Shown here: positions 1-18,433 of the stretch, piece after piece
Layout: each line of letters opens with the position of its first letter
Position numbering within the stretch: the stretch's first letter is position 1
From: Candidatus Odinarchaeota archaeon
GTDB taxonomy: Archaea; Asgardarchaeota; Odinarchaeia; Odinarchaeales; Odinarchaeaceae
NCBI GenBank assembly: GCA_038826135.1
Contig: JAWBON010000022.1
Span: 1 to 18,433, forward strand
DNA length: 18,433 nucleotides
Direction: 5' to 3'
Notes under the pieces: generated by a model
The model's input: the letters and a program-made list of their open reading frames with translations, nothing else
The model's database searches: none
Told to the model about the DNA's origin: nothing
Program-made: the position numbers and the translations under genes

Positions 1-837
1 CTGAAAAAAGTTTTTAAAATATATCTTCGGAGGTGAAAAATGCAGTTTAAAGATTGAATTAAAATATTTATAGTAGTTTTTAACTGTAAAATTAAACTTT
101 GAATTATTATAGGCTGCTAAATCATCTAAAAAAACAGTTCTTAAAATTTTTTTAAAAAAAGGTATAGTATCTTTTGCTTTTACACTTCGGCCAGTAATGT
201 AAAAATAACAGTTAATCAGAGACCACTTAACAGCCTCATACAAGTATCTCCAAACCCGTTTAAAACAGTTAACAATCGTAAAAACCAGGTATAAGAGACT
301 GCATAACTTAAATGATTTAACGATTTGAAAGAAGTCTAAAGGTTTTTTAAGATTTTTAAGATCGTATTCTTTACCGTAAACTATCTTGTAATTTGAGAAA
401 ACCGAGTTTAAAACAAGCCTCTCCGGAACTAAAAGTCTAGATAGAAAACGGTTAACGTTAAAAATTCTTGGAAAACAAGCTGATAAAAGATCTTTTTCAG
501 AGCATATGAAAAACGATTTAAACATACCGGTCCCTGTCTCGAAAAAATAAAGTAAACGATCGATAAAACCAGAAAAACCTGAATTAAAGAAAAAGTTTTG
601 AACACCAGTCATAGCCGCAGTGATACTTTTCCGCTGCCTAGCATTCACAGACCCGTCTACAATTATTAAAACATCAATATCACTCAACTGATTCATTACA
701 CCGCCTTTAACAGCGGAGCCGAAAAGAATTATTGAAACAGGGAGAAAACCAAGCTTTACCTTAACAGTTTTCAGAACTAGATCCAAGTATTTTTTAATAT
801 GATTTTGAACACTAAAACTTTGAGGAGAAGACCCCAT
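1..837 (-). CDS. Nucleotidyltransferase domain protein (Pol-beta/MNT-like N-terminal domain plus helical C-terminal region); 3' end outside window
   Basis: Hand translation of the minus strand from ATG at 837 is open for 279 codons to base 1: MGSSPQSFSVQNHIKKYLDLVLKTVKVKLGFLPVSIILFGSAVKGGVMNQLSDIDVLIIVDG... It carries the hG[S]-x11-D-h-D nucleotidyltransferase signature (G40-S41, D53-I-D55). An AGGAG Shine-Dalgarno lies at 849-845. Not in the supplied ORF track. Confidence 0.85.
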   Translation of the reverse strand, partial: MGSSPQSFSVQNHIKKYLDLVLKTVKVKLGFLPVSIILFGSAVKGGVMNQLSDIDVLIIVDGSVNARQRKSITAAMTGVQNFFFNSGFSGFIDRLLYFFETGTGMFKSFFICSEKDLLSACFPRIFNVNRFLSRLLVPERLVLNSVFSNYKIVYGKEYDLKNLKKPLDFFQIVKSFKLCSLLYLVFTIVNCFKRVWRYLYEAVKWSLINCYFYITGRSVKAKDTIPFFKKILRTVFLDDLAAYNNSKFNFTVKNYYKYFNSIFKLHFSPPKIYFKNFFQ

Positions 838-1016
838 ATTATAGCTCCTAATTAACGGTGGGATACTAGTATTTATTAGTTTAACATTATAAAAAATTTA
901 ATCACCCGCATTTATAGCTTTTAAATCTTCTAAAAATTTCATGTATAGTTTAAAAAATAGAATGTCTTTAAAGAGTTTTGAGAAATAAGCTAATATTATA
1001 AGCGGTGAGAGCCCGG
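838..1016. promoter_or_regulatory. AT-rich divergent intergenic region with candidate archaeal TATA boxes
   Basis: Lies between two divergent starts. Candidate TATA-like hexa/octamers: TTTATAAT on minus (893-886), and TTTATA (911-916) and TTTAAAAA (949-956) on plus. SD-like GGTGA at 1004-1008. The region is AT-rich, so individual boxes are uncertain. Confidence 0.4.
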
Positions 1017-3268: not shown

Positions 3269-5218
3269 ATGCCTTTAAACTTAACTTATAAGATACTTAA
3301 AGATCATTTAGTTGAAGGGGAGCTTGTTAAAGGTGAAGAGATAGGTGTGAGAATAGATCGAACATTAACACAGGATGCCACAGGCACATTAACCTATCTT
3401 CAATTCGAAGCATTAGGTTTAGATAAAGTTCGAACAGAATTATCTGTCAGCTATGTGGATCATAACACTCTTCAAACAGATTACATGAATGCTGACGACC
3501 ATAAATATTTGCAGACTGTAGCTGCAAAGTATGGCATATATTTCTCTAAACCAGGTAACGGTATATGCCATCAAGTTAATCTGGAACGGTTTAGTAAACC
3601 GGGTAGAATCCTTTTAGGCTCTGATTCTCACACTCCAACATGCGGCGGTGTTGGAATGCTTGGGATAGGGGCTGGAGGCTTAGATGTAGCTGTAGCTATG
3701 GGAGGAGGTTTATTTTATTTTAACACCCCCGCTGTTCTAGGCGTTGAGCTGACGGGTAGGAGAAAACCATGGGTTTCAGCGAAGGATGTTATATTAGAGG
3801 TTTTAAGAAGGCTTACAGTTAAAGGTGGCGTGGGGAAAATAATAGAGTATTACGGGGAGGGTGTTAAAGATTTAGATGTGTATGAGAGAGCGACTATTAC
3901 AAACATGGGTGCGGAGACAGGGGCGATAAGCTCGATATTCCCCTCAGACGAGATTACAGGAGAATTCTTCCAGCTTCAGAGAAGACCTCAAGACTGGGTT
4001 AAACTTGAAGCTGACGAGGGGTGCGAGTACGATGAGTATATGAGAATAAATTTAGCTGAATTAGAACCTATGATCGCGATACCTCATAGTCCGGGAAACG
4101 TTAAAAAAATAAGCGAGGTTGAAGGGTTGCCTGTCGACCAGGTTGCAGTCGGCAGCTGTACAAATTCATCTCTGAAAGATCTTATGATAATTGCAGCGAT
4201 ACTTAGAGGTAAAACCGTGCATCCTGATGTTAGCTTAACTATTTCACCTGGTTCTAAGCAAATCCTTGAGGAAATAGCTAGAAACGGTGTACTAGCTGAT
4301 TTAATAGCTTCAGGGGCTAGAATACTTGAAACAGCTTGCGGTCCCTGCATCGGCATGGGGCAGGCTCCAAGAACTGGCGGTGTTTCTCTGAGAACGTTTA
4401 ACAGGAATTTTAAAGGTAGAAGCGGAACAGAGGATGCTCAGGTATTTTTAGCAAGCCCGGAGGCGGCTGCAGCTGCAGCTTTACATGGGAGGATAACAGA
4501 TCCTAGGAGGCTGGGAAGCTACCCATCCGTGAAGCTTCCGAAGGAAATTAATGTAAACGATAATTTGATAATAAAACCTCCTAAAGACTCTTCTAAAGTA
4601 GAGGTGGTAAGAGGGCCTAACATAAAGCCTATACCAGCTAATACGCCTCTGCCGGAGAATATAATTTTAGAAATTATACTTAAAGTCCGCGATAATATAT
4701 CTACAGATGAGATACTGCCTGCGGGTGTGAAAGTCTTGCCGTTAAGAAGCAATATACCGGCTATAAGCGAATACTTGTTTAAACCAATAGATCCCACGTT
4801 TATAGACCGGGTGAAAAAGAAGAAGGGAGGGGTGATATTAGCGGGTGAAAATTACGGTCAAGGTTCCAGTCGTGAACATGCAGCGATAGTGCCGATGTAT
4901 CTTGGAGTTAAAGTGATCATAGCTAAATCATACGCGCGAATACATAGAGCGAACTTGATAAATTTCGGTGTACTACCGTTACAGTTAACCGATCCATCAG
5001 ATTATAATAAAATAGATCAGGGAGATATATTGAATATTAAGAATATAAGAAAGCTGCTTGAAGACGGCAAGCAGACAGTGGATGTTTTAAACACTAGTAA
5101 ACGGTTAATATTCAAAACAAAACATGATTTAACACCCAGACAGGTGAAGATAATATTAGCAGGCGGGCTTTTAAACTATGTAAGAGAAGCCAACATATCC
5201 AGGTCTGGAAATAGGTGA
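3269..5218 (+). CDS. acn: Single-chain aconitate hydratase-family protein (short Aquifex/archaeal-type, C-terminal swivel domain)
   Basis: 649 aa. Motifs TQDATG, DHN, PGNGICHQV, GSDSHT, three [4Fe-4S] cysteines (GSCTN; ACGPC), NRNFKGR, and swivel-domain GENYGQGSSREHAA. Confidence 0.9.
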   Translation: MPLNLTYKILKDHLVEGELVKGEEIGVRIDRTLTQDATGTLTYLQFEALGLDKVRTELSVSYVDHNTLQTDYMNADDHKYLQTVAAKYGIYFSKPGNGICHQVNLERFSKPGRILLGSDSHTPTCGGVGMLGIGAGGLDVAVAMGGGLFYFNTPAVLGVELTGRRKPWVSAKDVILEVLRRLTVKGGVGKIIEYYGEGVKDLDVYERATITNMGAETGAISSIFPSDEITGEFFQLQRRPQDWVKLEADEGCEYDEYMRINLAELEPMIAIPHSPGNVKKISEVEGLPVDQVAVGSCTNSSLKDLMIIAAILRGKTVHPDVSLTISPGSKQILEEIARNGVLADLIASGARILETACGPCIGMGQAPRTGGVSLRTFNRNFKGRSGTEDAQVFLASPEAAAAAALHGRITDPRRLGSYPSVKLPKEINVNDNLIIKPPKDSSKVEVVRGPNIKPIPANTPLPENIILEIILKVRDNISTDEILPAGVKVLPLRSNIPAISEYLFKPIDPTFIDRVKKKKGGVILAGENYGQGSSREHAAIVPMYLGVKVIIAKSYARIHRANLINFGVLPLQLTDPSDYNKIDQGDILNIKNIRKLLEDGKQTVDVLNTSKRLIFKTKHDLTPRQVKIILAGGLLNYVREANISRSGNR

Positions 5219-5240: not shown

Positions 5241-5921
5241 CTATAATTGCAGCCTGTTGCATTTACTTATCCTTATAGCAAAGTTTTCTAACAGTTCATA
5301 TCCGTATTCTGTCTGAGAGACTTCAGGGTGGAATTGAACACCCCAGATTCGATTATGAATATTAAAAGCTTCTACACTGCAGTTAAGGCTGTGCGCTATT
5401 GTTTGACCACCTAAGGGAAGCTTTTCCACCTCGTCGGTGTGAGAGGCCCAAACTTGTAGTTTACTGGGAATATTATAGAATAACGGGTCTTTAGGTTCAT
5501 CTATTATCAGTTCAGCTAAACCGTATTCGCTTTTACTCCCTCTTTTAACGTAGCCATCAAGTTGGTGTGCGATCAATTGGTGACCGTAGCAGATGCCGAG
5601 TATTTTAAGCTTGGAGCTTCTTAAAATGTTTAAGTCACATATTGGAGCGTTCTTCTCGTATACAGAGTTAGGACCGCCGCCGAGAATCACACCTTTAACG
5701 TGGAAGTCAAGCAGCTGCCGGTATGTTGCAGTGTAAGGCAGTATTTCCACGTTTATATCAAGTTCTTCAAGCATTCTTTTTATAAGATGCGTGTACTGGC
5801 CGCCGAAGTCAAGTATCACGATATCTATGTTTTCACGGTCATAGACGTGTTTGTCCATTATCGTAGAGATTTTAGCTTTATCAATTTTTTCAATCATTGT
5901 TTGAGAAGAGTCTTGAAACAT
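5241..5921 (-). CDS. guaA: GMP synthase, glutamine amidotransferase subunit (archaeal split GuaA subunit A)
   Basis: ILDFGGQY, GGGPNSVY, catalytic GICYGHQ, SH-x-D and QFHPEV. ATG 5921 chosen because AGGTGG lies 5 nt upstream; the ORF track starts at GTG 5930. Confidence 0.9.
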   Translation of the reverse strand: MFQDSSQTMIEKIDKAKISTIMDKHVYDRENIDIVILDFGGQYTHLIKRMLEELDINVEILPYTATYRQLLDFHVKGVILGGGPNSVYEKNAPICDLNILRSSKLKILGICYGHQLIAHQLDGYVKRGSKSEYGLAELIIDEPKDPLFYNIPSKLQVWASHTDEVEKLPLGGQTIAHSLNCSVEAFNIHNRIWGVQFHPEVSQTEYGYELLENFAIRISKCNRLQL

Positions 5922-5930
5922 TAAAACCAC

Positions 5931-7016
5931 CTATGTTACCAGCTCCCTTATTCTATTCTGCTTGCATCCTTCGCGAATCTCTCTTGCGATACGCCTGCCC
6001 ATATACATGGGTTCACTGAATTGAAGATATGTATATGGGGAGTAACCTATCGCCACATTGCAGCCGGCTACAATCCTACATGATACTTCGAAAACTATTA
6101 ATTTAAGACTCTCTGTGCAAATTGTCTCTAAACAGAATGGGCCTATTAAACCTGGTGGGGCGATTCGGCGGGAGGCTTCTAAAACTTTTTCACCTAACTC
6201 GTAAACCTGTGAGAGAAGCGATTCCCGGAGAAGCACCATGAAGTTACCTATCACCGTGTAGGTTGCTTCTATTTTAGCTTCAATCTGGTCTGAGGCTGGT
6301 ATTCTTGAAAGACCGTCTACATTAGACTCGTATCTTCTATCCGCTCCGAGAAATTCAAGCCGGTTATTTAGCGGGGAGTAGAAATAGTGCAGGTAAACAG
6401 GTGCACCTAGAATATATTCTTGTATTTGAGGCTCTTTAAGATCTTCCTCGGATATGTGACCTTTACTAAGCATTTCCTTAGCCTTTCTCTCATATGATTC
6501 AAGGTTGTTTGCTAGAAAGTAGCCTCGACCTCCCTTAGCGCGGGGGAATTTCGTTATTGTAAGTGTGTCTATTTCATCAGGCCGCCTGAATGTTTTAGGA
6601 ACAGGGACACCGGATAGTTTAAGCCATTTATCCTGCATTTCCCGGTGAGACTCCCATGTGAGTAACGCCCTGTTTCCGAAAATAGGAAGCTGAAAAGACT
6701 CCTCTATTTTCTCCGAGCCTATATACGCGTTGAAAGAGCCGTGCGGTATTATTATAGAATTCATAGATAACAGCTTCTGTTGAATGCTGTCATCTAATAT
6801 TTGGCTTAAATCATCTAGTAGAATATACTCGTCTACAATTGGAAAATGGTCGTAAACTTTTTTCCTAGCATGCTCGCAAATGCACACGGTTGTAAAACCT
6901 TCTTCTTTAGCGCCTTTAAAAATATTTAGAGCAGAATGGCTTCCAATAGTCGCTATATGTAACTTGCGTGGATCGTATTTTTCAACTGTTTTCTGAACGC
7001 TCTCTCGAAGTATCAT
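5931..7016 (-). CDS. purP: PurP, formate-dependent FAICAR synthetase (ATP-grasp)
   Basis: IATIGSHSAL, PHGSF, KGGRGYF, DRRYESN, GPFCLE, and RIVAG...SPY...MGRRIAREI match the archaeal PurP family. ATG 7016 (361 aa) preferred, downstream of the purM stop and a purine-rich SD-like tract. Confidence 0.92.
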   Translation of the reverse strand: MILRESVQKTVEKYDPRKLHIATIGSHSALNIFKGAKEEGFTTVCICEHARKKVYDHFPIVDEYILLDDLSQILDDSIQQKLLSMNSIIIPHGSFNAYIGSEKIEESFQLPIFGNRALLTWESHREMQDKWLKLSGVPVPKTFRRPDEIDTLTITKFPRAKGGRGYFLANNLESYERKAKEMLSKGHISEEDLKEPQIQEYILGAPVYLHYFYSPLNNRLEFLGADRRYESNVDGLSRIPASDQIEAKIEATYTVIGNFMVLLRESLLSQVYELGEKVLEASRRIAPPGLIGPFCLETICTESLKLIVFEVSCRIVAGCNVAIGYSPYTYLQFSEPMYMGRRIAREIREGCKQNRIRELVT

Positions 7017-7029
7017 ACAGTCCCTTCCT

Positions 7030-8094
7030 TTAATATGAAAGTTCTTCTCCACTAGAAGTTTTTAGTTTAACACCGGGTTCTTTAACGACGCGGCCTAGAA
7101 TAATTGGTTTTAAGCCGTGCGCTCTACATGATTTAATCACTTCAGTTTCATTCTCAGATGGGGTTATAATGCAGAAACCTATACCCATGTTAAACGTCTT
7201 ATACATTTCATAACTGTCCACTCCACCCCACTCTTGGAGACAGGTAAATATTCTAGGAGGCTTAGGCATGTTAAGCTCAAACCCTAGTTTCCCTTTAGTT
7301 ATTCTCATAAGTTTCGTAAACGCTCCACCAGTTATATGAGCTAACCCGGTTACAAGATTATTCTCAACCAGCGGTAAAACCTCTTGAACATATATTCTAG
7401 TAGGGGTTAACAGTATTTCCCCCAAGGTTTTAGAGCCGCTCAACGGCTTTGAATTTAAATCTATTTTTCTCCGTTCAATTATTCTTCTGATCAATGTATA
7501 ACCGTTAGAGTGAAAGCCGCTGCTCGGTAAACCTATCACAATATCACCGGGTTTCACCCTGTCGCCTAGAACTATGTTTTTCGTGGCCAGCACACCGGCG
7601 CGGCGCGCGGCTAAGTGGGAGCCTGAGCCGGGTTTAACCCCTGTTATCACATCAGGCATGATAGCGGTTTCCCCGCCTACTATCGCCGCTCCAGATTTTT
7701 TAGCCCCTTTAACAAGGCCTTTCATTAACTGCTCCGCTAGCAGATGGTTAGATGCCTCTAAGGCTATGTAGTCTACTATAGCCACAGGCTCAGCCCCGCA
7801 GCATACTAGGTCATTTACATTCATAGCGACACAGTCGATGCCTACAGTATCATACTTATCCATTGTTTGAGCTATGAGAACCTTGGTGCCCACACCGTCA
7901 GCGTGTAAGGCGAGAGCTGTTGTCGCGGAGATATTTAGAAGAGCGGCGTAGTGCCCGTACTCGTTTAACAGTTCACCGAACTTATTCCTTCTTAAATTAA
8001 ATGTTGAAGTGATAAGCCTGCCTATCCGTTTATGAGCTTCTTTAGCAAGGTTAATATCAACTCCTGCGCTCTTATAAGTCATCTTAAAGTTCAT
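7030..8094 (-). CDS. purM: Phosphoribosylformylglycinamidine cyclo-ligase (AIR synthetase)
   Basis: TYKSAGVDI, DGVGTK, AMNVNDL, GGETA, SSG-x-HSNG, AHITGG, TFNMGIG. Residues 159-171 deviate from consensus (see findings). Confidence 0.95.
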   Translation of the reverse strand: MNFKMTYKSAGVDINLAKEAHKRIGRLITSTFNLRRNKFGELLNEYGHYAALLNISATTALALHADGVGTKVLIAQTMDKYDTVGIDCVAMNVNDLVCCGAEPVAIVDYIALEASNHLLAEQLMKGLVKGAKKSGAAIVGGETAIMPDVITGVKPGSGSHLAARRAGVLATKNIVLGDRVKPGDIVIGLPSSGFHSNGYTLIRRIIERRKIDLNSKPLSGSKTLGEILLTPTRIYVQEVLPLVENNLVTGLAHITGGAFTKLMRITKGKLGFELNMPKPPRIFTCLQEWGGVDSYEMYKTFNMGIGFCIITPSENETEVIKSCRAHGLKPIILGRVVKEPGVKLKTSSGEELSY

Positions 8095-9439
8095 ATCTAT
8101 ATCCTCTCAGTTCTTTAACAGCGCGCTCCACCTGCTGGATCGCGGTCCCTATATATGAGGACGGGTCCAGCCATTTATCAAGTTCAGCCGGTGATACAAG
8201 CTTAGATAACGTGGGCTCTTGGAGAAGAGCTTGTTTAAAATCTATTTTTTGAGTCCAAGATTTCATAGCGCATATCCTTAATATTTCATGGGCTTGCTGT
8301 CTACCTAAACCTTTGTTAACAAGCTCTATCATTATTTTCTCAGCCATTATCAGGCCTCTGGTTAAGTTAAGATTTCTCAGTATATTATCCTCGTCTAATT
8401 TGACTCCTTTCAGTATTTGAGTTAACTGTCTAAGCATATAGTCTAAGAGTATCATGTTCTCGGGGATGATTATACGTTCAGGAGCGGAGTTTGTGAGATC
8501 CCGTTCATGTTCTAGTGCAGTGTTTTCAAGCGCTGGAAAAGCGTTAGCTATCAGTATACGGGATAAACCGCATATTCTCTCGGATTTGTGAGGGTTTCTT
8601 TTATGAGGCATTGTTGAAGACCCTACTTGGGTTTGCTTAAACTCCTCCCAGACCTCACCTATCTCGGTTCTCTGAAGGTTTCTAAGCTCTTTACCGATTT
8701 TGTTAAGTGTAGCGGCTACAAGACTTGTAAATAATATAAGCTCCGCTATTCTATCGCGTTGAACTATTTGGTTAGATGCTTCAGCTGGTTTTAAACCTAG
8801 TTTACCCATAACCAACTCCTGTATTCTAAATCCTTTCTCCCCGAAGCCGGCCATTGTACCGACAGCCCCAGTCATTTTACCGACTAAAACTCTAGGAGTT
8901 AGCTGGGTTAATCTTATTATATGCCTGTGGATTTCATAAGCCCATATAGTGAATTTTAAACCAAACGTTGTTGGCAGAGCATGCTGGCCGTGTGTTCTAC
9001 CCACACATACGGTTTCCTTATATTTATCAGCTAAGTCCACTACTACATTCTTAAGATTGATAAGATCCTCTGTTATTATTTTAATAGCATCCCTTAATTG
9101 AAGAGCGGTAGCTGTATCCTCGATGTCATAGCTTGTAGCTCCAAGGTGAACGTAATCGCCAGCTTCACCTTCACAGACTTCTGTTAAAGCTTTAACCATA
9201 GCCATAAGATCGTGATGTATTTGCTCCTCTATTTCTTTCACACGCTTCACTTTAACGTATTTTAACGAGGCTTTGCGGGTTATTTCTTCAGCCGCCTTGC
9301 TTGGTATGTTACCAACCTCCGCGTGTGCTTGAGCTAAGGCGGCTTCAACTTCAAGCCATTTCTGAAGTCTAGACTCCTCTGTGAATAATGACCTCATTTC
9401 AGGGTAACAGTACCTGTATTCAATCGGGTGAACATACAT
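8084..9439 (-). CDS. purB: Adenylosuccinate lyase
   Basis: HPIEYRY, HHDLMA, HLGATSYD, GRTHGQHA, the fumarase-superfamily signature GSSTMPHKRNP, and HERDLTNS. GGAGG SD upstream. Confidence 0.96.
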   Translation of the reverse strand: MYVHPIEYRYCYPEMRSLFTEESRLQKWLEVEAALAQAHAEVGNIPSKAAEEITRKASLKYVKVKRVKEIEEQIHHDLMAMVKALTEVCEGEAGDYVHLGATSYDIEDTATALQLRDAIKIITEDLINLKNVVVDLADKYKETVCVGRTHGQHALPTTFGLKFTIWAYEIHRHIIRLTQLTPRVLVGKMTGAVGTMAGFGEKGFRIQELVMGKLGLKPAEASNQIVQRDRIAELILFTSLVAATLNKIGKELRNLQRTEIGEVWEEFKQTQVGSSTMPHKRNPHKSERICGLSRILIANAFPALENTALEHERDLTNSAPERIIIPENMILLDYMLRQLTQILKGVKLDEDNILRNLNLTRGLIMAEKIMIELVNKGLGRQQAHEILRICAMKSWTQKIDFKQALLQEPTLSKLVSPAELDKWLDPSSYIGTAIQQVERAVKELRGYRYEL

Positions 9440-9450
9440 TTTACTTCCTC

Positions 9451-9864
9451 CTATACTTCGGTTCGCTTAGTTAGGTTAAGTATTCTCTTAGCTAATAGAG
9501 CAGCGTTTTTGCCGTTATCTATACCAACCGTTGCTACAGGTACCCCTGGGGGTGTTTGTGTGATTGACAGAAGAGCGTCTAAACCGCCTAGTTTAGCTGA
9601 AACAGGAACACCGATAACAGGTTTCTCAGTATAGGATGCGACAACACCGGGTAGAGCTGCAGCTAACCCGGCTATGCAAATATAGATTTTGAATTTATTA
9701 TCGTTCTCTTTAATATATGTTCTCAGCTTCTCAGGGTCTCTGTGAGCGCTAATATAGTTGACTTCATAAGTTATCTTCTCCTCGTCGAGTGTGGAGGTGA
9801 CTTTCTCCACTATTTCACTATCCGACTTGGAGCCTGCGAGTACAGCTACATCTATTTTACTCAA
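9451..9864 (-). CDS. purE: PurE, N5-CAIR mutase / AIR carboxylase
   Basis: [43 protein letters not shown] start with GAGGTG SD at 9875-9870. Confidence 0.95.
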
Positions 9865-9915: not shown

Positions 9916-10836
9916 TTATATTTTATGGGATTTTATGAATTTTTCAAGCTCTTCAAGATAGGGGAGCCCTCCTCTAGCTCCCATATATTTCACTTTTAAA
10001 GCAGCTGCAGCTACACCCATATAGCCTGCTTCGAATAAGCTTTTATTATTTAATAAGCCTGTTAGGAAACCTGCTGTGAACGCGTCACCTGCACCGGTTG
10101 TGTCTTTAACTTCAACTTTTATAGCCGGGATCATGTATGTCTGCGATTTATCAGCCACCATGCAGCCTTCAGATCCTAGTGTTATAGCCAGTGTTGAAAC
10201 ACCTAGTTGAAACAAAACATTTTTTATATTATCTAAGCCCTCGACGCTGAATATTCTAACAGCCTCATTATATGAGGAAACATATATGTCAGTGTTCATT
10301 ATGATGGGTTTAGCTTTAGCTAAACCCTGGTTTGCAATCAACGCGCCCGGGTTTAAAGCGGTTTTTAAACCATGTTCTTTAACTTTTCTTGAAAGATCTG
10401 ATAGAAATTTAACATTTTCCAAGCTAGCCATATATATTAGACGGGTTTTTAGCAGGGATTCCAATTCCACCTCGCTTATCGAGAGAGTGTTAGCAGCGCC
10501 TGAATACGCGAACATTCTCCGGTCTCCCTTAGAATCCACAGCGATGAAGCATAAACCTGTCGGAGTGTTCTTGGATCTTAATATTAGAGATGTGTCCACA
10601 CCTTCATCCTTGAATTTTTTCACTATCAGGTCGCCGAAAAAATCTACTCCTACTTTTCCTAGGAAGGATACTTTTAACCCGAGCCTGGAGCATGCTACAG
10701 CAGTGTTAGCGGCTGAGCCGCCGTATTCTATTCTAAGATTCGGCACGTATGTTTCATCATCCGAGGCGGGGAACCTGTCGACTGAAGCCACTAAGTCTAT
10801 GAGAGATGCTCCAACAGAGATCAAATCAAATTTCAC
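9916..10836 (-). CDS. PfkB/ribokinase-family carbohydrate or nucleoside kinase
   Basis: GGSAANTAVACSRLG (PfkB signature 1), GKVGVDFFG, and DTTGAGDAFTAGFL (signature 2 with the catalytic Asp). GTG start with GGAGG SD. Confidence 0.92.
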   Translation of the reverse strand: MKFDLISVGASLIDLVASVDRFPASDDETYVPNLRIEYGGSAANTAVACSRLGLKVSFLGKVGVDFFGDLIVKKFKDEGVDTSLILRSKNTPTGLCFIAVDSKGDRRMFAYSGAANTLSISEVELESLLKTRLIYMASLENVKFLSDLSRKVKEHGLKTALNPGALIANQGLAKAKPIIMNTDIYVSSYNEAVRIFSVEGLDNIKNVLFQLGVSTLAITLGSEGCMVADKSQTYMIPAIKVEVKDTTGAGDAFTAGFLTGLLNNKSLFEAGYMGVAAAALKVKYMGARGGLPYLEELEKFIKSHKI

Positions 10837-10859
10837 GCAGCCAATCCTCCTCTCACACG

Positions 10860-11945
10860 CTATCCTAACACTCCAACCCAGCCTCTAACAGTTTTCCTCA
10901 TATTCTTCTGAGCTTTTATAACCTCTTCAAGCAAATCCCGGTCAGCGTTTCGCAAATCATCTATACGTGGTATAAATTTATGTTCAATAAAGTATCTTTT
11001 CGTCTCCTTTGATAAGAGTGAATCCGGTATTTTCGCAGGGTTATCTTTAAACTCGGAGTATTTTTCCGTCCACGCTTCCAGCCAGTCCCAGATTCTATCA
11101 TGGTTTTCGAATATAGGATATGAGCCCATCTGGTTCGGTGATGTTACAGCTATGTTAGCGTTAGGAACAGAGTACTGGTTGCCGTTAAAGCTTATGGCTA
11201 CACCGTTCTCTCTTTTCACTCTTGACAGCATGTTAATATCTGTTATAGAGTCCCCTACCGCCACTATCTTGTTTAAAGGATAATTATAGTCTTCAGCGAT
11301 CTCTAACATAGCTTGCTCCTTCCTGGTTCCCCCTCTGACAGTAACCTTCATCATTATCTTAGTATATTTCGAACTTGTTTTAAAGAAAAACTGGTTTAAA
11401 TCATCGACTACGGCGTCCAATCCTTTAGAAAGATATTTCGGGAATATTGTGTCGATTAATGTTTTAACAGCGGGTTTGATTTCACCAAGCTCTTTTTTTA
11501 AATCACCTACAGGGAACTCTGTGCAATACACATTAGTTAAGGGGAGACTTATAAGAGAGGCGATATTATATGCGTGTTGTTTATAACTGGTGGATATTAC
11601 GTAAACCCTCCAGTCTCGGAGAAGTTGCTTAATTATATCGGTGATTCCGGGAACAAGACCAGGGTTAGCCTGCGATATATTTGTAAGCTCACCGTCTGTG
11701 AAATAGTATATGTAGAATGGAGCTAAAAGCCTTAAAGTATCTCCTGGTTCATAGCTCTCAACACCGAGGGAGCGGGTTATCTTAGGATTTTCTATAAGGT
11801 AGTCGTCATAGTTGCTTATCATCTGGTAGAATAAGTCCAGTTTAGGGCGGTTGAGTTTAACCTCTAATTTTTTAAATAAATCAGCTGCGAAATCCACGTA
11901 GCTTATAGGTCCCTCAAGATCCCATACTGTAAGCTTCAAAAACAT
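10860..11945 (-). CDS. HAD-superfamily hydrolase, EhaR/COG4030-like (DxE motif I)
   Basis: Motif I WDLEGPIS, motif II ISTSY, motif III Lys (TRKEQ), and motif IV GDSITD. YEPGDTLRLLAPF resembles the EhaR-like family as recalled; this family assignment is not verified by search. Confidence 0.75.
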   Translation of the reverse strand: MFLKLTVWDLEGPISYVDFAADLFKKLEVKLNRPKLDLFYQMISNYDDYLIENPKITRSLGVESYEPGDTLRLLAPFYIYYFTDGELTNISQANPGLVPGITDIIKQLLRDWRVYVISTSYKQHAYNIASLISLPLTNVYCTEFPVGDLKKELGEIKPAVKTLIDTIFPKYLSKGLDAVVDDLNQFFFKTSSKYTKIMMKVTVRGGTRKEQAMLEIAEDYNYPLNKIVAVGDSITDINMLSRVKRENGVAISFNGNQYSVPNANIAVTSPNQMGSYPIFENHDRIWDWLEAWTEKYSEFKDNPAKIPDSLLSKETKRYFIEHKFIPRIDDLRNADRDLLEEVIKAQKNMRKTVRGWVGVLG

Positions 11946-11961
11946 ACCTCTTCCATATTTT

Positions 11962-13263
11962 CTAACCTAATAATTGTTTCATGTGATCTATTCGCTTCTG
12001 AATTAGTTTACGGGTACCTATATCCCTCCTATGAAATAGTTCCCCTCCTATATAGCAGATAGAGCTTTCAGCGATCCTCTCAGCCTGTTCAAGATCAGAG
12101 CCCACACCGAGAACTGCAATACTTCTAGAGGTTGTGGTTAATATTTTACCGTTTTTCTCAGATACAGATGCGTAGTAGACTCTTCCACCAAGGTTTTCTA
12201 TCTCCTGCTCGTCCACGTTAACCTCGGTGGGCACCGGGCTCACCGGATAACCTACAGGTGCAAGATATTTAACCACGGTAGCCTTATTTTCGAATGCAAC
12301 ATGCTTCTCGGATAGATTTCCATCTAGTATTTTAAGACATATATCTGTGAAATTTGTTTGAAGAATGGGGAGAATATTTATAGCTTCAGGGTCTCCGAAT
12401 CTGGAGTTGAATTCCACCAGTCTAAGACCGTTTCTTGTAAGCATGAATTGACCGTAAAGAATCCCTTTATAACTGATTCCGGTCTCTTTTTTCACAGCTT
12501 TAACAGTCTTCTTCAATATATCTAATGCTACGGGAATATAACTGGAGTCTATAAAAGGCAGAGAGTGATCCGGGCAGCTGTATGATCCCATCCCTCCTGT
12601 GTTCGGCCCGTTATCTCCTTCGTAAGCTCTTTTATGATCTTGAACAAGCGGGCTTCCCACAACATGCTCACCGTCGACAAATGCTTGCAACGTGAATTCC
12701 TCACCGTCCAATTTCTCCTCTATAACAGCTTTGCTACCACTGGTAACTATTTCTTCAATGTATCTCTCAGCTTCAACTATGTTGTTTAAATGTTCACCTA
12801 ACACTTTCACACCTTTTCCACCTGTTAAACCATCCGGTTTAACAACTATGTTACCATGCTCTTGAAGATATTTTCGAACATTATTCATGTTCTCGAAAAC
12901 CCTGTATTCCAGGTTTCCTGGAATATTATATTTAGTTAAAAGAAGACGGGTGAAAGATTTACTGGATTCAAGCCTTGCAACAGTTTTACAGGGTCCTACG
13001 CACTGGACACCCGAATCCTCCAGTTTATCCACTAATCCCTCAGCTAAAGGGTCTTCAGGCCCTATTATACAGAAGTCAACATTTTTCGCGTAGTCTACTA
13101 TATCATCAAAATTGTTTAGTGAACCTATTTTAACATCTTCAGATAGACGGCTGATCCCGGGATTACGCGTCTTCATATAGGCGTATAGTCGAGCACCGCT
13201 TTTAACTAGACTTTCAGCTATAGCGTGTTCTCTAGCACCTTGACCGATCAAGAGCACTTTCAT
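11962..13263 (-). CDS. purD: Phosphoribosylamine-glycine ligase
   Basis: GQGAREHA, IGPEDPL, LESSK, KPDGLTGGKGV, QDHKRAYEGDNGPNTGGMG, EFNSRFGDPE, HRRDIG. ATG 13263 follows a GGTGA SD; the ORF track starts at 13284. Confidence 0.96.
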   Translation of the reverse strand: MKVLLIGQGAREHAIAESLVKSGARLYAYMKTRNPGISRLSEDVKIGSLNNFDDIVDYAKNVDFCIIGPEDPLAEGLVDKLEDSGVQCVGPCKTVARLESSKSFTRLLLTKYNIPGNLEYRVFENMNNVRKYLQEHGNIVVKPDGLTGGKGVKVLGEHLNNIVEAERYIEEIVTSGSKAVIEEKLDGEEFTLQAFVDGEHVVGSPLVQDHKRAYEGDNGPNTGGMGSYSCPDHSLPFIDSSYIPVALDILKKTVKAVKKETGISYKGILYGQFMLTRNGLRLVEFNSRFGDPEAINILPILQTNFTDICLKILDGNLSEKHVAFENKATVVKYLAPVGYPVSPVPTEVNVDEQEIENLGGRVYYASVSEKNGKILTTTSRSIAVLGVGSDLEQAERIAESSICYIGGELFHRRDIGTRKLIQKRIDHMKQLLG

Positions 13264-14710
13264 CAACACACTCACCGCCTTCATCCTTATGCGTAAGCTT
13301 CTTCTGTTTAATATTCTTGGCTTTCATATTCGGGTAGCATCCTGTAAGGCAGGCTAAGCAGAGTCTGTTTCGATCAACCCCTATAGCGTCTATTAAGCCT
13401 TCAAGAGACTGGTAACCGAGACTGTCAGCGCCGATGTCGGCTCTTATCTCCTCCACAGATTTGTTAGCGGCTACCAGCTCCTCTTTACTCGGAAAGTCTA
13501 TACCCATATAGCATGGAGATATAATCGGTGGACAGCTTACTCTTAAATGAATTTCTTTAGCCCCAGCTTTCTTAACAATGTTAACTATTCTCCTAGAGGT
13601 TGTGCTTCTAACGATACTGTCATCAACTAAAATAACACGTTTACCTTTTATAGCGTCTTTAACAGGATTAATCTTCAATTTAACATACCGTTCTCTAAGC
13701 TCAGGGTACGGTAGGATGAAAGTCCGCCAAATTGACCTGTTTCTAATAAGGCCTTCAACTAAAGGTATACCTGATTGTTGTGAATATCCTATAGCGGCAA
13801 CTCTGCCAGAGTCAGGGATAGGAATCACAGCATCAGCTTTCACAGGGTGGATTTTAGCCAAGTTCACACCGAGTTTCATTCGAACATCGTGAACAGAAAC
13901 CCCGTTAACAATAGAGTCCGGTCTCGCGAAATAAACGTATTCAAACATGCAGTGAGCTGTCGGCTGAAGGGAGTTAGATGACTCGAAGACCTGGCGTGGT
14001 TCAAGCCGGCTGTTATTGATAGCAAGTATCTCACCAGGGTTAACATCCCGAAGATAGTTTATTTCCAGTATGTCGAATACAACTGTTTCAGATGATATAA
14101 CGTATGAGCCTTTATCTAATTCGCCTATTGATAAAGGTCTGAATCCGAGAGGATCTCTTATAGCGTACAGTTGACCAGTATTATTCATTAAAACCATTGA
14201 GTAAGCTCCTTGGAGGAGCTCCATGGTTTTCTCAATCGCTTTATTATAATTGCAATCTGTTTCTATAAGATAGGATATCATAAGATGCGCTATAACTTCT
14301 GTGTCAGCGTCGGATGTGAACGTGTGACCGCGCCGTATAAGATTCTTTTTCAACTCTATGTGGTTTGTTATATTACCGTTAAAAGCTAAAGCGAACTGTG
14401 TGTCTCCTATGTCAATAGTGTATGGTTGAATATTAGCCTCGTTGCTGGAGCCTGCTGTAGAGTAACGTGTGTGACCTATACCTATATTCCCGAATAATCT
14501 GGCCAAACTATCCTCGGGTATAGCTTCATCAACACCGCCCATACCTTTAACAGATCGTATACTTTTACCTGTGAGAACGCTTATGCCAGCAGACTCCTGA
14601 CCCCTATGCTGTAGAATAAGCAGGCCGTCATATAAAAGATGGGCTACGTTGAAATCCCGGCTTGAAGAGTATACGCCGACGACCCCGCAAGCCTCTTTCA
14701 AGTCATCCAT
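13232..14710 (-). CDS. purF: Amidophosphoribosyltransferase ([4Fe-4S], propeptide type)
   Basis: Short propeptide then CG (Ntn nucleophile), QHRGQESAG, GHTRYST, RDPLGFRPL, CMFEYVYFARPDS, VDDSIVR, PCYMGID, CLAC. Confidence 0.96.
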   Translation of the reverse strand: MDDLKEACGVVGVYSSSRDFNVAHLLYDGLLILQHRGQESAGISVLTGKSIRSVKGMGGVDEAIPEDSLARLFGNIGIGHTRYSTAGSSNEANIQPYTIDIGDTQFALAFNGNITNHIELKKNLIRRGHTFTSDADTEVIAHLMISYLIETDCNYNKAIEKTMELLQGAYSMVLMNNTGQLYAIRDPLGFRPLSIGELDKGSYVISSETVVFDILEINYLRDVNPGEILAINNSRLEPRQVFESSNSLQPTAHCMFEYVYFARPDSIVNGVSVHDVRMKLGVNLAKIHPVKADAVIPIPDSGRVAAIGYSQQSGIPLVEGLIRNRSIWRTFILPYPELRERYVKLKINPVKDAIKGKRVILVDDSIVRSTTSRRIVNIVKKAGAKEIHLRVSCPPIISPCYMGIDFPSKEELVAANKSVEEIRADIGADSLGYQSLEGLIDAIGVDRNRLCLACLTGCYPNMKAKNIKQKKLTHKDEGGECVDESALDRSRC

Positions 14711-16926
14711 TTACTAACACCCATATATCTTGGTATAGTTTCATAGTATAGCTTCCTCAGCCTCCGCGTTGAGCAGCTGATTCTACTCATCTTATATTTG
14801 AATTCGAATCTCCCCGAGTCTGTAACTTGACCTATATTTTTAACAGGAATATTATCCTTCTTGAAGATTTCAATAATCGAGCCGACATTTTCCTTTTTAA
14901 CTGTGAGAATATAGCGGCCGTGACTTTCCGAGAAGAGTATTTCATCAAACCTCAGTTCAGGCTCCCCTAACCCGTCTAAATTTACTGTAGCTGAAAGATT
15001 ATTCTCCATCCCCATTTCAACAAGGCTTATAGCAATTCCACCTCGGAAACAGTCATGAGCTGCTGAAAGTTTACCTGTTCTAACAGCCTTCAAAACAGAT
15101 TTAAGCGTGACAGCTTCTCGCTCAAGGTTTACCACTGGGGCTTTACCTCCTTGAAGCTTATGATAGAAATTATAGTATTCAGAACCCCCCATTTCCCGAT
15201 GGGTTAAACCAACCATCAGTATGATATCACCAGCCTGCTTAAAACTCATAGTGGTTATATATGATAGGTTTTCTATTAATCCCACTGTGAGAACCACGGG
15301 GCATGGTTTAACAACACGCGCGCTAACCTGGTCTTCATTATAGAAGCTTACATTACCGCCTATACATGGGATGCCTAGTTTAAGAGCGTAGTCTGTTAAT
15401 CCTTTAATAGTCTCGTTGAAGCACCATAAAACCTCGGGGTTCTCAGGATTACCGAAGCTTAGACAGTCCACCCATGCTAAAGGTTCAGCTCCCGTTACAG
15501 CTACATTCCTACAGGACTCAGCTAAAGCCCCAGCTCCCCCATTATACGGGTCAAGGTATGAGTGACTGGGGGTGGCGTCTGATTTAGCCGCTACAGCTTT
15601 ATTTCTACCTATCACGCGGAGAACAGCCGCGTCAGCTTGGCCAGGTTTGACAACAGTTCGATCACCAACTTCATGATCATATTGCCGGTACACCCATGCT
15701 TTAGACGCTAGGTTCGGTGAACCGGCTAGTTTGTATACCACATCCGCTAAGTTCTCAGGCATAGCGGGAGGATTTAAATCAGCAAGCTTATCAATATAAG
15801 CGGGTCTCCTTATAGGCCTGTTTAAAACAGGCGGGTCTGAAAGCATTTTAGAAGGAACCTGAGCTACTAAACACCCGTTTTTATAAACATTCACTTTTTG
15901 AGTGTGATTAATCCTTCCAATTATACTATATGGAACCTCGTATTTATCAAAAATCCTTGTTACCTTATCCACACCTTCAGGTTTAACAACAAATAACATT
16001 CTCTCCTGGGATTCAGATATCATGATTTCATAAGGGATCATGTTATCCTCTCTTAATAGTATCTTGTTAAGATCTATTTGCACGCCTGTTCCGCCAGCCC
16101 CGGACATTTCTGAGGATGCACAGGTAAGCCCTCCGCCGCCTAAATCTTTTAAACCGCTGACATAACCTGTTTTAACAGCTTCTAAAGTAGCCTCTATTAT
16201 AAGCTTCTTCGTGAACGGGTCTCCTATCTGCACCGCAGGCCTATCAGCTTCAGACTCCTCTGTTAAAACCCGTGAAGCGAATGTGACACCGTGTATTCCA
16301 TCCCTTCCTGTTGAACCCCCCATAAGTATTAATACATCTCCAACATTCTCAGCTACACTTAAAGCTATATCGCTTCTCTTCGCGAATCCTAAGCAACCTA
16401 CATTCACCAGACAGTTATTCTCATAACTATCGTCGAATTCAACATCCCCGCCAACAGTTGGCACACCTATACAATTACCGTAGTCGCTTATACCTTTAAC
16501 AACATATTCGAAAAGCCATTTAGAATGATTACTAGTTAATTCACCGAATCTGAGATTATTAAATAATGCAACAGGTCTGGCCCCCATGCAGAGAACATCA
16601 CGCACTATGCCGCCTATACCGGTAGCCGCACCGTTATAAGGTTCTATAGCTGATGGGTGGTTATGTGTTTCAACTTTAAATACAGCAACATCACCGTCGT
16701 TGATATCTATGACACCCGCATCCATACCCGGGCCTACAACAACACGCGGACCCTCCCTGGGAAGCTGTTTAAGAAATGGTTTAGAAGACTTATACGAGCA
16801 GTGCTCAGACCACATAACATCTATCATACCTGCTTCAACCTGGTTTGGTTCCCGGCCTAGCATTTTTTTGACCTTCTCAACCTCCTCCTCAGTTAGATTA
16901 ACTTTAACACCGTCAATAACAGGCAT
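14698..16926 (-). CDS. purL: FGAM synthase subunit PurL (small type)
   Basis: WSEHCSYKSS, HNHPSAIEPYNGAATG, TGRDGIHG, VQIGDPF, KDLGGGGL, SESQERM, QYDHEV, GGNVSFYN. Confidence 0.97.
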   Translation of the reverse strand: MPVIDGVKVNLTEEEVEKVKKMLGREPNQVEAGMIDVMWSEHCSYKSSKPFLKQLPREGPRVVVGPGMDAGVIDINDGDVAVFKVETHNHPSAIEPYNGAATGIGGIVRDVLCMGARPVALFNNLRFGELTSNHSKWLFEYVVKGISDYGNCIGVPTVGGDVEFDDSYENNCLVNVGCLGFAKRSDIALSVAENVGDVLILMGGSTGRDGIHGVTFASRVLTEESEADRPAVQIGDPFTKKLIIEATLEAVKTGYVSGLKDLGGGGLTCASSEMSGAGGTGVQIDLNKILLREDNMIPYEIMISESQERMLFVVKPEGVDKVTRIFDKYEVPYSIIGRINHTQKVNVYKNGCLVAQVPSKMLSDPPVLNRPIRRPAYIDKLADLNPPAMPENLADVVYKLAGSPNLASKAWVYRQYDHEVGDRTVVKPGQADAAVLRVIGRNKAVAAKSDATPSHSYLDPYNGGAGALAESCRNVAVTGAEPLAWVDCLSFGNPENPEVLWCFNETIKGLTDYALKLGIPCIGGNVSFYNEDQVSARVVKPCPVVLTVGLIENLSYITTMSFKQAGDIILMVGLTHREMGGSEYYNFYHKLQGGKAPVVNLEREAVTLKSVLKAVRTGKLSAAHDCFRGGIAISLVEMGMENNLSATVNLDGLGEPELRFDEILFSESHGRYILTVKKENVGSIIEIFKKDNIPVKNIGQVTDSGRFEFKYKMSRISCSTRRLRKLYYETIPRYMGVSKWMT

Positions 16927-17634
16927 TTAACGACCACCATTAAAAGATTTTATAAGAGATTCGAATATCAGCCGGCCGTGCTCAGTACGGTATGGGCTGA
17001 GAACTGTTTCAGACGCTCGCTCAGGATGAGGCATCAAACCGACAACGTTCCCTTCAAGATTGCATATCCCGGCTATATTATCCATAGAACCATTAGGATT
17101 AGCCTCTCTTGATTCAACCCCGGATTCGTCAACATATTTAAACACGATTTGATCATTATCGTAAAGCTCTTTAATTCTCTTACGCGTGTTCACATACCGG
17201 CCTTCCTTATGAGCTATAGGTATTCTAATAATAGAGGATTTTTTAACATATCTTGTAAAAGGTGTCCTAGTGGTTTCCACACGGAGATTAACCCATTTAC
17301 ATACAAATGTTAAACAGTCGTTTTGAAGCAGCGCACCGTCTAATAGTTTAGCTTCAATCAGTATTTGAAATCCGTTGCAGATTCCAAGCACAGGTTTACC
17401 CTCAGCAGCCATTTCTCTCACATGCCGCATAGCTGGACTGTAAGCGGCTATCACACCAGCTCGAAGGTGATCACCATATGAAAAACCGCCGGGCAGTATG
17501 ACAGCGTCATAGTCACCGCTGTTAAATTCTTTATGCCAGACTAGGCTAGTTTCCTGTTTCAAAACATCTTTTAAAACGTGGAGGGCATCATAGTCGCAAT
17601 TTGACCCGGGGAATTGTATTATAGCTATTTTCAA
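16927..17634 (-). CDS. purQ: FGAM synthase glutaminase subunit PurQ
   Basis: FPGSNCD, PGGFSYGD, GICNGFQIL, NPNGS, GLMPHPER. TTG start overlaps the purS stop (TTGA), with an AGGAG SD. Confidence 0.96.
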   Translation of the reverse strand: MKIAIIQFPGSNCDYDALHVLKDVLKQETSLVWHKEFNSGDYDAVILPGGFSYGDHLRAGVIAAYSPAMRHVREMAAEGKPVLGICNGFQILIEAKLLDGALLQNDCLTFVCKWVNLRVETTRTPFTRYVKKSSIIRIPIAHKEGRYVNTRKRIKELYDNDQIVFKYVDESGVESREANPNGSMDNIAGICNLEGNVVGLMPHPERASETVLSPYRTEHGRLIFESLIKSFNGGR

Positions 17635-17897
17635 CTAGTACTCTCCTTTAAAACCATACTATAAGTATGAGCTACAGGATTATACAGTCTAAGATCATTA
17701 ATCATTTTCACAACGTAGTTTTTAGCTTCCTCAGCATTATTAGCGGAAACCTTTATTCTCAGAAACTTACCTGTTCTAACAGAGTTAATCAGTTCATAGC
17801 CTGCTTTATGCATTAAGTCGCGCATTATAGTCATTCCTTCCGGATCCTTAGCGTACGGTTTACTTTCAATAACAACCTCTATAATATATTCATTCAA
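17631..17897 (-). CDS. purS: FGAM synthase subunit PurS
   Basis: 88 aa with DPEG, VRTGK and LYNPV, positioned between purC and purQ. TTG start overlaps the purC stop. Confidence 0.92.
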   Translation of the reverse strand: MNEYIIEVVIESKPYAKDPEGMTIMRDLMHKAGYELINSVRTGKFLRIKVSANNAEEAKNYVVKMINDLRLYNPVAHTYSMVLKESTS

Positions 17898-18433
17898 CTT
17901 TCAAGACCCTCTTGTAAAGGTTCTTCACCTGTTATTACTTTAAAAGTCTCTATATATGTTTCCCTAACTTTATCCAAGCTGTCACCGCTCCTGTAACCAT
18001 CTTTATCGAAGGCTATTCCACCATCTGGAGAGGACCAAAGCCTCATAGAATCCCCGTTCAACTCGTCACCTATTATAAGTTCATCTTTTTTTAAACGTCC
18101 GAACTCAATTTTAAAGTCTACAAATATTAGATTACGCTTCTTAAAGAAGTCTTTCAGAACATTATTAGCTTTCAAAGTGTATTCTTTAATCTGAAGTGTT
18201 TCTCTCTCTGAAGCGATGTTGAGAGCTTGAATATGGTATTCGTTAAGCATAGGGTCGTGTAATTCATCAGATTTATAGAAGAACTCGATTATCGGTGGTT
18301 TAAGCTGCTGGCCTGTTTTAAAGAATGGGAGTTTTTTAACAAGATGACCTGCCGCTATATTTCTGCAGACAACCTCTATTGGAAGCATTTGAATTTTTTT
18401 AGCAATGATTATGTTAGGGAAAATATAATCAAC
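17894..18433 (-). CDS. purC: SAICAR synthetase (5' end outside window)
   Basis: The frame stays open from 18388 to the window edge (VDYIFPNIIIAKKIQM...). Motifs PIEVVCRNIAAG, EFFYKSDELHDP, VDFKIEFG, DEL-x-x-DSMRLW, FDKD-x-YR. Confidence 0.95.
   Translation of the reverse strand, partial: VDYIFPNIIIAKKIQMLPIEVVCRNIAAGHLVKKLPFFKTGQQLKPPIIEFFYKSDELHDPMLNEYHIQALNIASERETLQIKEYTLKANNVLKDFFKKRNLIFVDFKIEFGRLKKDELIIGDELNGDSMRLWSSPDGGIAFDKDGYRSGDSLDKVRETYIETFKVITGEEPLQEGLES

Follow-up and report, generated by a model that had tools for sequence, protein, structure and literature searches.

A HAD-fold gene and a PfkB kinase gene in an Odinarchaeial purine operon as candidate partners of a second formyltransferase in glycinamide ribonucleotide formylation

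Why should a purine operon carry a phosphatase-fold gene and a kinase gene side by side between purD and purE? The question is raised by an 18,433-nt stretch of DNA from Candidatus Odinarchaeota archaeon (assembly GCA_038826135.1, contig JAWBON010000022.1; referred to here, at its full length, as the window), which is contig C22 of a 1.26-Mb genome that is 93% complete. From an open reading frame (ORF) list and Pfam and NCBIfam scans, we found that the window carries a 13-gene purine operon on the minus strand, in which a HAD-fold gene and a PfkB-family kinase gene are co-oriented with their neighbors (Table 1). The spacing is tight, with 16 nt between the purD stop codon and the HAD ATG, 23 nt between the HAD stop codon and the pfkB GTG, and 51 nt between the pfkB stop codon and purE. 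An earlier note on this DNA had described just such an adjacent pair with 16- and 23-nt gaps, and the ORF list, the scans, and the sequence itself all agree with it. The same operon is present in two further Odinarchaeia genomes (L013 and L014), and the order HAD-then-pfkB recurs across archaeal groups; thus, the arrangement is not due to chance. We propose, with a probability of about one-half, that the HAD protein, the kinase, and a second formyltransferase (Ftr2) encoded elsewhere in the genome jointly supply step 3 of purine synthesis, the formylation of glycinamide ribonucleotide (GAR) to formylglycinamide ribonucleotide (FGAR). GAR formylation, which the earlier note had named as one possibility, has become the best-supported reading of the locus, and it draws on the families to which the proteins belong, on the strict co-inheritance of the three genes, on their position between purD and purL, and on their complementarity with purN and purT.

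Step 3 is the point at which the host's purine pathway has a gap, the remainder of the pathway being encoded in the operon. The genome gave no match to Formyl_trans_N (PF00551), and its best scores against the PurT model (TIGR01142) did not exceed 44 bits, compared with a cut-off of 502. PurN and PurT were likewise not found in a closed 1.4-Mb congeneric genome (G001) or in any of six genomes of the Odin order, and neither the HAD protein nor the kinase matches the PurN or PurT families. Other archaea have a similar gap: both enzymes were reported absent from Archaeoglobi, Methanobacteriales, and Methanopyrus by Brown et al. in 2011 (PMC3261824), and Chadwick et al. in 2022 described the same gap for Archaeoglobales and Methanobacteriales and added ANME-1 (PMC9012536). 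The second of these papers also reported an uncharacterized Ftr2 clade in Archaeoglobi, Methanobacteriales, Methanopyrus, and ANME-1; neither paper connects the missing PurN and PurT to that clade. The HAD gene is carried by Archaeoglobus fulgidus (as AF1437), by M. kandleri, and by ANME-1.

We looked at how the HAD gene is distributed relative to purN and purT, for which the earlier note had proposed to test an anti-correlation. The counts cover 151 Asgard genomes and 171 from Halobacteriota, of which 170 carry purD; Methanobacteriota, among them the Methanococcales, which have PurT, lie outside the sample. Among the 76 HAD-positive Halobacteriota, PurN is present in 8 and PurT in none, which leaves 68 with neither, whereas 90 of the 95 HAD-negative genomes have PurN or PurT and only 5 have neither. 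Put the other way, HAD is found in 68/73 Halobacteriota that lack both enzymes and in 8/98 that have either. Among purD-positive Asgard genomes, PurN and PurT are both missing from 11 of the 23 with HAD versus 10 of the 75 without it (3 of these 10 belong to the family that we label f13; f9, f16, and f25 below are likewise Asgard family labels), and the complementarity is weaker there than in Halobacteriota. The proposed anti-correlation is strong in Halobacteriota but not strict, as PurN and HAD occur together in 12 Asgard and 8 Halobacteriota genomes.

The three genes are inherited together. The HAD gene is present in 26 of the 151 Asgard genomes, and cassette-type PfkB (called at 280 bits or more to a subfamily profile) is present in exactly the same 26 plus 3 genomes of family f13, where a diverged HAD protein with a DVEGP motif adjoins the cassette kinase (hhalign 99.1%). 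This co-occurrence persists in family f9, where the two genes lie on separate contigs. The earlier note had seen a two-gene cassette; the pair is real, but the description overlooked a third partner, which the host encodes at another place in its genome. At least two Ftr genes are found in 23 of the 26 HAD-positive Asgard genomes, and within family f9, a second, divergent Ftr is present in 15 to 16 of 17 HAD-positive versus 0 of 13 HAD-negative genomes. In Halobacteriota, two Ftr genes are found in 58/76 HAD-positive genomes, versus two or more in 12/95 HAD-negative genomes.

The host itself has two Ftr genes, Ftr1 on contig C16 and Ftr2 at G000:C104:1848-2729, the latter with PF01913 as well as PF02741, the two Pfam domains of Ftr. 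A maximum-likelihood tree separated Ftr1 from Ftr2 with 100/100 support. The Ftr1 clade holds the canonical A. fulgidus and ANME-1 copies along with the host's C16 copy, and the Ftr2 clade takes in the C104 copy and the second copy of A. fulgidus, as well as all seven (7/7) of the Ftr genes that adjoin HAD or purD. The full trio of HAD, Ftr2, and PfkB is therefore present in the host, whose kinase scores 405 bits to the subfamily profile, with only HAD and pfkB adjoining and Ftr2 on another contig. In the closed relative G001, Ftr2 stands alone, ~0.9 Mb from the operon. Since the host also encodes Mch and Ftr1, along with a fragment of FwdA at the end of a contig, the one-carbon (C1) carriers on which an Ftr would draw should be present.

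Two observations made alongside the Ftr genes may be recorded here. A closed 0.99-Mb Halobacteriota genome (G224, locus L142) has HAD-pfkB-Ftr2 with Ftr2 as its only Ftr, and PurN is also present. Next to the host's Ftr1 gene (C16:2439-5360, locus L006) lies an RtcB tRNA ligase gene with an intein that bears a LAGLIDADG homing-endonuclease domain.

Gene neighborhoods in relatives place the module at the step-3 position, between PurD, which makes GAR, and PurL, which consumes FGAR. HAD-then-pfkB was found among Asgards (Odinarchaeia, Hodarchaeota-type genomes, and Helarchaeota) and also in Altiarchaeia, Archaeoglobi-like genomes, and other Halobacteriota; the spacing ranges from −50 to +23 nt, and overlaps of 4 nt are frequent. 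With enough flanking sequence to tell, purD lies within 3 kb upstream of HAD on the same strand in 55/62 Asgard loci. In family f16, the genes run purF-purD-HAD-Ftr2-pfkB-purL, contiguous and co-oriented; closed f13 genomes have purL-purF-purD-Ftr2; Hodarchaeota-type genomes have a purF-HAD-pfkB-purE variant; and a Methanocellales-labeled metagenome-assembled genome has HAD-pfkB-Ftr2. Family f25 shows purD-MFS-HAD-MFS-pfkB-purE, with two genes of the major facilitator superfamily (MFS; L163:3423-4859 and L163:6173-7459) interleaved. Beyond the archaea, a Microgenomates bacterium of the candidate phyla radiation (CPR) has purB-purEC-HAD-purD (purEC being a purE-purC fusion), with two purP genes and folD nearby. 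Across 127 nonredundant loci, the recurrent neighbors are purD, pfkB, Ftr2, and a HEAT-repeat protein, and never hydrogenase genes. The pair is thus conserved both with itself and with pur genes, as the earlier note had supposed.

Some neighbors of the module are of other kinds. The HEAT-repeat protein (PF13646, ~160 amino acids [aa]) is encoded between purD and HAD at L088:9367-9846 and at equivalent positions, in 64/80 Asgard loci in all, and purD, the small HEAT-repeat gene, and then HAD is the order in most Loki-type Asgards; it might serve as a scaffold. In family f9, the unlinked cassette pfkB directly follows a gene for a 393-aa protein (L178:308-1489 and L179:307-1488) with a weak N-terminal domain related to aminoimidazole ribonucleotide (AIR) synthase (PurM/ThiL/HypE superfamily). 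A gene resembling amidohydrolases and adenosine deaminases lies just 3′ of HAD-pfkB(-Ftr2) in two Halobacteriota lineages (L098:11084-12160 and L140:9146-10252).

What kind of protein does the HAD gene encode? Its nearest homologues, from Candidatus Odinarchaeum and Odinarchaeia, are 75 to 77% identical, and the family numbers 2815 homologues in a large database (420 clusters at 50% identity). The earlier note had called the protein EhaR-like, and this assignment proved sound: several homologues carry the Joint Genome Institute (JGI) name “energy-converting hydrogenase A subunit R,” and the family profile matches PDB 1Y8A (AF1437 of A. fulgidus) at an E value of 1e-75. BLASTP aligned the window protein with the A. 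fulgidus ORF at 28% identity over residues 9 to 361 (E 1e-30), and AF1437 (1Y8A) was also the top Foldseek match (TM 0.80), followed by phosphoserine phosphatases and ThrH as the nearest folds and sequences. Pfam matches only the C-terminal HAD motifs, but full-length homology and the signature residues make the protein a member of the AF1437/“EhaR” (COG4030-type) family; the family signatures YDD and PGDTL (both in the cap and invariant), GDSITD, and F-N-G-N are all there. Its HAD motifs are DLEGP (I), STS with S118/T119 (II), K209 (III), and GDSITD with D232 and D236 (IV). Motif I, D-x-E-G-P, is invariant across a 57-sequence alignment, as are D9, E11, G12, D18, G68, T70, L71, K209, D232, S233, D236, N254, N256, R350, and R354, every one of which the window protein keeps. 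Asp9, the nucleophile, is present together with intact motifs II to IV, and Glu11 occupies the Asp+2 position in every member. The gene is single-copy in the host.

The family reaches beyond archaea, with bacterial members in Nitrospirota (P0141/P0424), Microgenomates (P0152), and Parcubacteria (P0434). Six proteins of 900 to 970 aa (P0158, P0180, and P0391-P0394) have an ATP-grasp domain of ~550 aa fused to a distant EhaR-like HAD domain. In the N-terminal part of the fusions, the sole family match is local and to PurT, spanning 35 residues (E 6e-9; PDB 2CZG, E 0.01), and the fusion genes (loci L183-L185) are always preceded by conserved ORFs of 105 and 148 aa; standalone forms occur in Aenigmarchaeota. 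No pur genes lie at the fusion loci, and we did not use these fusions as Rosetta stone evidence.

The kinase belongs to the PfkB family (PF00294, 199.9 bits against a cut-off of 25.8) but not to ribokinase proper, since it falls short of both RbsK equivalog models (TIGR02152, 186.4 versus 299.65 bits; NF008353, 158.5 versus 341). In an alignment to Escherichia coli ribokinase (1GQT), the diol-binding Asp14 is conserved, as are the Asn, the Glu, and the catalytic Asp of GAGD, whereas Leu and Ser stand where RbsK has the ribose contacts Asn14 and Lys43, the Ser being almost invariant across the subfamily. G39, G40, N44, D245, T247, G248, A249, G250, and D251 are invariant in the subfamily alignment. 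With the catalytic residues kept and the two ribose contacts replaced, the kinase would be expected to bind a 1-substituted ribofuranoside and not free ribose. The score of a predicted complex of HAD and PfkB was 0.00, which counts neither for nor against binding.

The two genes are the Odinarchaeial orthologues of EhaR (HAD) and EhaT (PfkB), and Ftr2 is of the EhaS type. How might the three bring about formylation of GAR? We infer here which substrates are used, what donates the formyl group, and in what order the reactions run. Ftr2 would move a formyl group onto the glycinamide amine, taking it from formyl-methanofuran or N5-formyl-tetrahydromethanopterin (H4MPT). Both donors have a low formyl potential, which could account for a phosphatase and a kinase bracketing the transfer: HAD would strip the 5′-phosphate from GAR to give glycinamide riboside, Ftr2 would formylate the riboside to formyl-glycinamide riboside, and the kinase would rephosphorylate only the formylated riboside to FGAR and so trap the product. 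At one ATP, such a shunt would match PurT in cost, with the ATP driving the transfer even though the donor's formyl potential is low. There is precedent for an obligatory dephosphorylation within a biosynthetic route in riboflavin synthesis. We put forward this dephosphorylate-formylate-rephosphorylate sequence, with HAD acting first, Ftr2 second, and the kinase last, as a tentative and somewhat doubtful version of a third GAR transformylase system.

Several points weigh against a role of the trio in GAR formylation. PurN and HAD are found together in 12 of the 23 purD-positive Asgard genomes with HAD (all f9, and all with the full trio) and in 8/76 Halobacteriota, implying that the module is not simply a PurN substitute. 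Ftr2 is unlinked to the purine operon in the host, the pair is without purine neighbors in most Halobacteriota loci, and the MFS transporters of family f25 hint at riboside traffic. If Ftr2 formylates GAR directly, the phosphatase and the kinase are left without an obvious role, and the shunt is a rationalization of their presence. Phosphatase activity of the HAD protein is assumed from its motifs, with Glu at the usual Asp+2 position of motif I; enolase-phosphatase E1, an active enzyme, also has Glu at this position. Because the genomes counted are related and not independent, the counts show phylogenetic clumping, and Fisher tests overstate the signal. Finally, labeling data on the origin of purine C8 in Methanobacteriales are inconsistent (PMC3261824).

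Other explanations have to be set beside the role in GAR formylation. An opposing phosphatase and kinase inside a purine operon would also fit a ribotide/riboside cycle that involves no formylation, in which HAD as a 5′-nucleotidase and PfkB as a riboside kinase buffer, detoxify, export, or re-import pathway intermediates, for example GAR, 5-aminoimidazole-4-carboxamide ribonucleotide (AICAR/ZMP), or the corresponding ribosides; this would amount to metabolite repair, overflow, or cross-feeding. The two MFS genes interleaved in purD-MFS-HAD-MFS-pfkB-purE would suit such traffic, the kinase looks riboside specific, and the pair has no adjoining formyltransferase in the host or in Altiarchaeia. 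A PfkB aminoimidazole-riboside kinase is known in Salmonella. We nevertheless consider cycling unlikely, as it accounts neither for the near-perfect co-inheritance with Ftr2 nor for a location between purD and purL nor for the complementarity with purN and purT, and a pure futile cycle would be expensive for a 1.3-Mb genome. Ftr2 is accommodated if the trio instead serves C1 carriers or formate supply, either by freeing formate from formyl-methanofuran or formyl-H4MPT for PurP or by making or repairing a ribose-containing part of a C1 cofactor. PurP of the operon does require formate, an amidohydrolase gene recurs beside the module, and the genes lie in the eha operon in Methanobacteriales, where the Eha hydrogenase feeds formyl-methanofuran synthesis. 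Ftr homologues work in formate-releasing complexes of methylotrophs (bacterial Fhc), as cited in PMC8141765. However, the conserved adjacency is to purD and purL, not purP, PurT archaea, which also require formate, are without HAD in the Halobacteriota sample (0/12), and HAD chemistry is not known for formamide hydrolysis, which together make a formate service improbable.

Pentose-phosphate supply for PurF is a still less probable role. HAD would act like a phosphopentomutase (ribose 5-phosphate to ribose 1-phosphate) and PfkB as a ribose-1-phosphate kinase, yielding ribose 1,5-bisphosphate as a mutase activator or as a precursor of phosphoribosyl pyrophosphate (PRPP). NCBIfam ribose-1-phosphate kinase models are indeed among the PfkB matches, but their scores (134 and 125 bits) are far under the cut-offs (500 and 330 bits), lower than that of the ribokinase model; β-phosphoglucomutases are among the Foldseek matches of HAD, and in Altiarchaeia the pair is ~3.5 kb away from a PRPP synthase gene, yet the host's own PRPP synthase is normal. 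It would remain unexplained why the linkage is to purD and not purF, why Ftr2 is linked, and how the purN/purT pattern arises. That EhaR and EhaT are true accessory subunits of an energy-converting hydrogenase, as their names suggest, is the reading to which we give least credence, and we regard it as very improbable. It has in its favor that ehaR, ehaS, and ehaT are cotranscribed with ehaA-Q in Methanothermobacter (PMC3087415), but the window, whose contents are pur genes and genes for an aconitase, a helicase, and a nucleotidyltransferase, has no hydrogenase gene, nor do the recurrent neighbors at the 127 loci include one; members stand beside purD in CPR bacteria, every non-methanogen context contradicts it, and all three proteins have soluble enzyme folds with catalytic motifs that look intact.

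We also considered whether the pair fills a missing inosine monophosphate (IMP) cyclohydrolase step. A PurO-type cyclohydrolase (PF07826) was not found in the host (G000), the closed Odin genome G001, or three other Asgard genomes (G013, G020, and G012), PurH2 not being searched for, so the final purine step may be a second unassigned step in these Asgards. We rejected the pair as a candidate, since the trio is also carried by A. fulgidus and Methanothermobacter, which we take to have PurH2 and PurO, respectively.

Turning to the operon as a whole, its features are collected in Table 1. The database copy of the HAD protein (P0003) has 359 aa, which fits a TTG start codon at 11939, 6 nt past a GAGGT box and two codons past the ATG. 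With its better spacing from the box and its match to the 359-aa copy, the TTG is likely to be the true start, in which case the purD-HAD gap is 22 nt. A GAGGAGG box lies upstream of the pfkB GTG. The longest purD ORF shares 53 nt with the end of purF (window positions 13232-13284), and because the TIGR00877 match begins at residue 8, the true purD start is probably further downstream. A scan for bacterial-type promoters and terminators gave nothing informative within the operon. Unrelated genes flank it, encoding a nucleotidyltransferase-domain protein (1-837, minus strand), a DEAD-box helicase-like protein (1005-3194, plus strand), and an aconitase-family protein (3269-5218, plus strand).

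Table 1. Genes of the purine operon in the window, in order of transcription
Gene	Position	Strand	Remarks
purC	17894-18433	−	5′ part cut by the window end
purS	17631-17897	−	Pfam/NCBIfam scan
purQ	16927-17634	−	Pfam/NCBIfam scan
purL (formylglycinamidine ribonucleotide [FGAM] synthase II, FGAR consumer)	14698-16926	−	Pfam/NCBIfam scans
purF (amidophosphoribosyltransferase)	13232-14710	−	Pfam/NCBIfam scans
purD (GAR synthetase)	11962-13284	−	TIGR00877, 451 bits; directly upstream of the HAD gene
AF1437/“EhaR”-family HAD-fold gene	10860-11945	−	361 aa from ATG
PfkB-family kinase gene, “EhaT-type” cassette subfamily	9916-10836	−	306 aa, GTG start
purE	9451-9864	−	Pfam/NCBIfam scans; directly downstream of pfkB
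purB	8084-9439	−	Pfam/NCBIfam scans
purM	7030-8094	−	Pfam/NCBIfam scans
purP (archaeal formate-dependent AICAR formyltransferase)	5931-7052	−	Pfam/NCBIfam scans
Guanosine monophosphate (GMP) synthase, glutamine amidotransferase (GATase) subunit	5241-5930	−	Final gene of the string

A literature search found, within the library covered, no paper tying EhaR, EhaS, EhaT, Ftr2, AF1437, or a methanofuran-using GAR formyltransferase to purines. What the locus adds is a split arrangement, in which the operon holds HAD and pfkB but not Ftr2; three-way co-inheritance that is strict across Asgard families; two gene orders, purD-Ftr2 and purD-HAD-Ftr2-pfkB-purL; and a complementarity count in Halobacteriota that is conditioned on purD. 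Since at least 2011, Archaeoglobi, Methanobacteriales, Methanopyrus, and ANME-1 have had no enzyme assigned to step 3, and the present data put Odinarchaeia along with further Asgard families in the same position; with this locus and its relatives, the gap can be tackled by direct experiments on three small soluble proteins. If the trio does formylate GAR, the R, S, and T subunits of Eha, a 25-year-old mislabel, would be reassigned to purine synthesis, and their cotranscription with a hydrogenase that feeds formyl-methanofuran synthesis would be explained. A link between purine C8 and the methanofuran/H4MPT C1 pool of Asgard archaea would also follow, with consequences for metabolic reconstructions of the closest archaeal relatives of eukaryotes, and a phosphatase/kinase bracket, if real, would be a new way to make an unfavorable group transfer irreversible.

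It remains to compare the module with known systems. Among characterized proteins, the window HAD is nearest, after AF1437, to SerB and ThrH of the C1-cap class of HAD enzymes, with which it has the four HAD motifs in common; unlike them, it has much larger cap inserts, a C-terminal helical extension with the invariant Arg350 and Arg354, and the family-wide Glu at Asp+2, and its scores are far under the SerB cut-offs. AF1437 itself (PDB 1Y8A, a structural-genomics entry with no assigned function) belongs to the same family, with motif I as DWEGP, but is ~50 residues shorter and has no adjoining pfkB or pur gene in A. fulgidus, whereas other Archaeoglobi-like genomes keep overlapping HAD and pfkB genes. 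The kinase has its fold and catalytic residues in common with RbsK (1RKD/1GQT) and other PfkB riboside kinases. Ftr2 shares both Ftr Pfam domains with Ftr1, the characterized formylmethanofuran:H4MPT formyltransferase, but forms a separate clade and adjoins purD, HAD, or pfkB rather than C1-pathway genes.

The closest known counterpart of the whole is the end of the ehaA-T operon of Methanothermobacter. The earlier note had placed EhaR, an Ftr-like formyltransferase, and a ribokinase-like protein at the tail of the eha operon in Methanobacteriales, and the literature bears this out: according to Kaster et al. in 2011, EhaS of Methanothermobacter had been annotated as an Ftr and EhaT as a ribokinase, both cotranscribed with ehaA-R and of unknown function (PMC3087415). 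EhaR, EhaS, and EhaT represent the same three families, tightly coupled, in a host without PurN or PurT (PMC3261824), whereas the Odinarchaeial locus has no hydrogenase context, HAD and the kinase lie between purD and purE, and Ftr2 is unlinked. The proposed slot in the pathway, step 3 between PurD and PurL, is that of PurN, which uses 10-formyl-tetrahydrofolate, and of PurT, which uses formate and ATP. The trio is unrelated to either in sequence or fold and would fill the slot with three proteins and a formyl donor of the methanofuran/H4MPT type.

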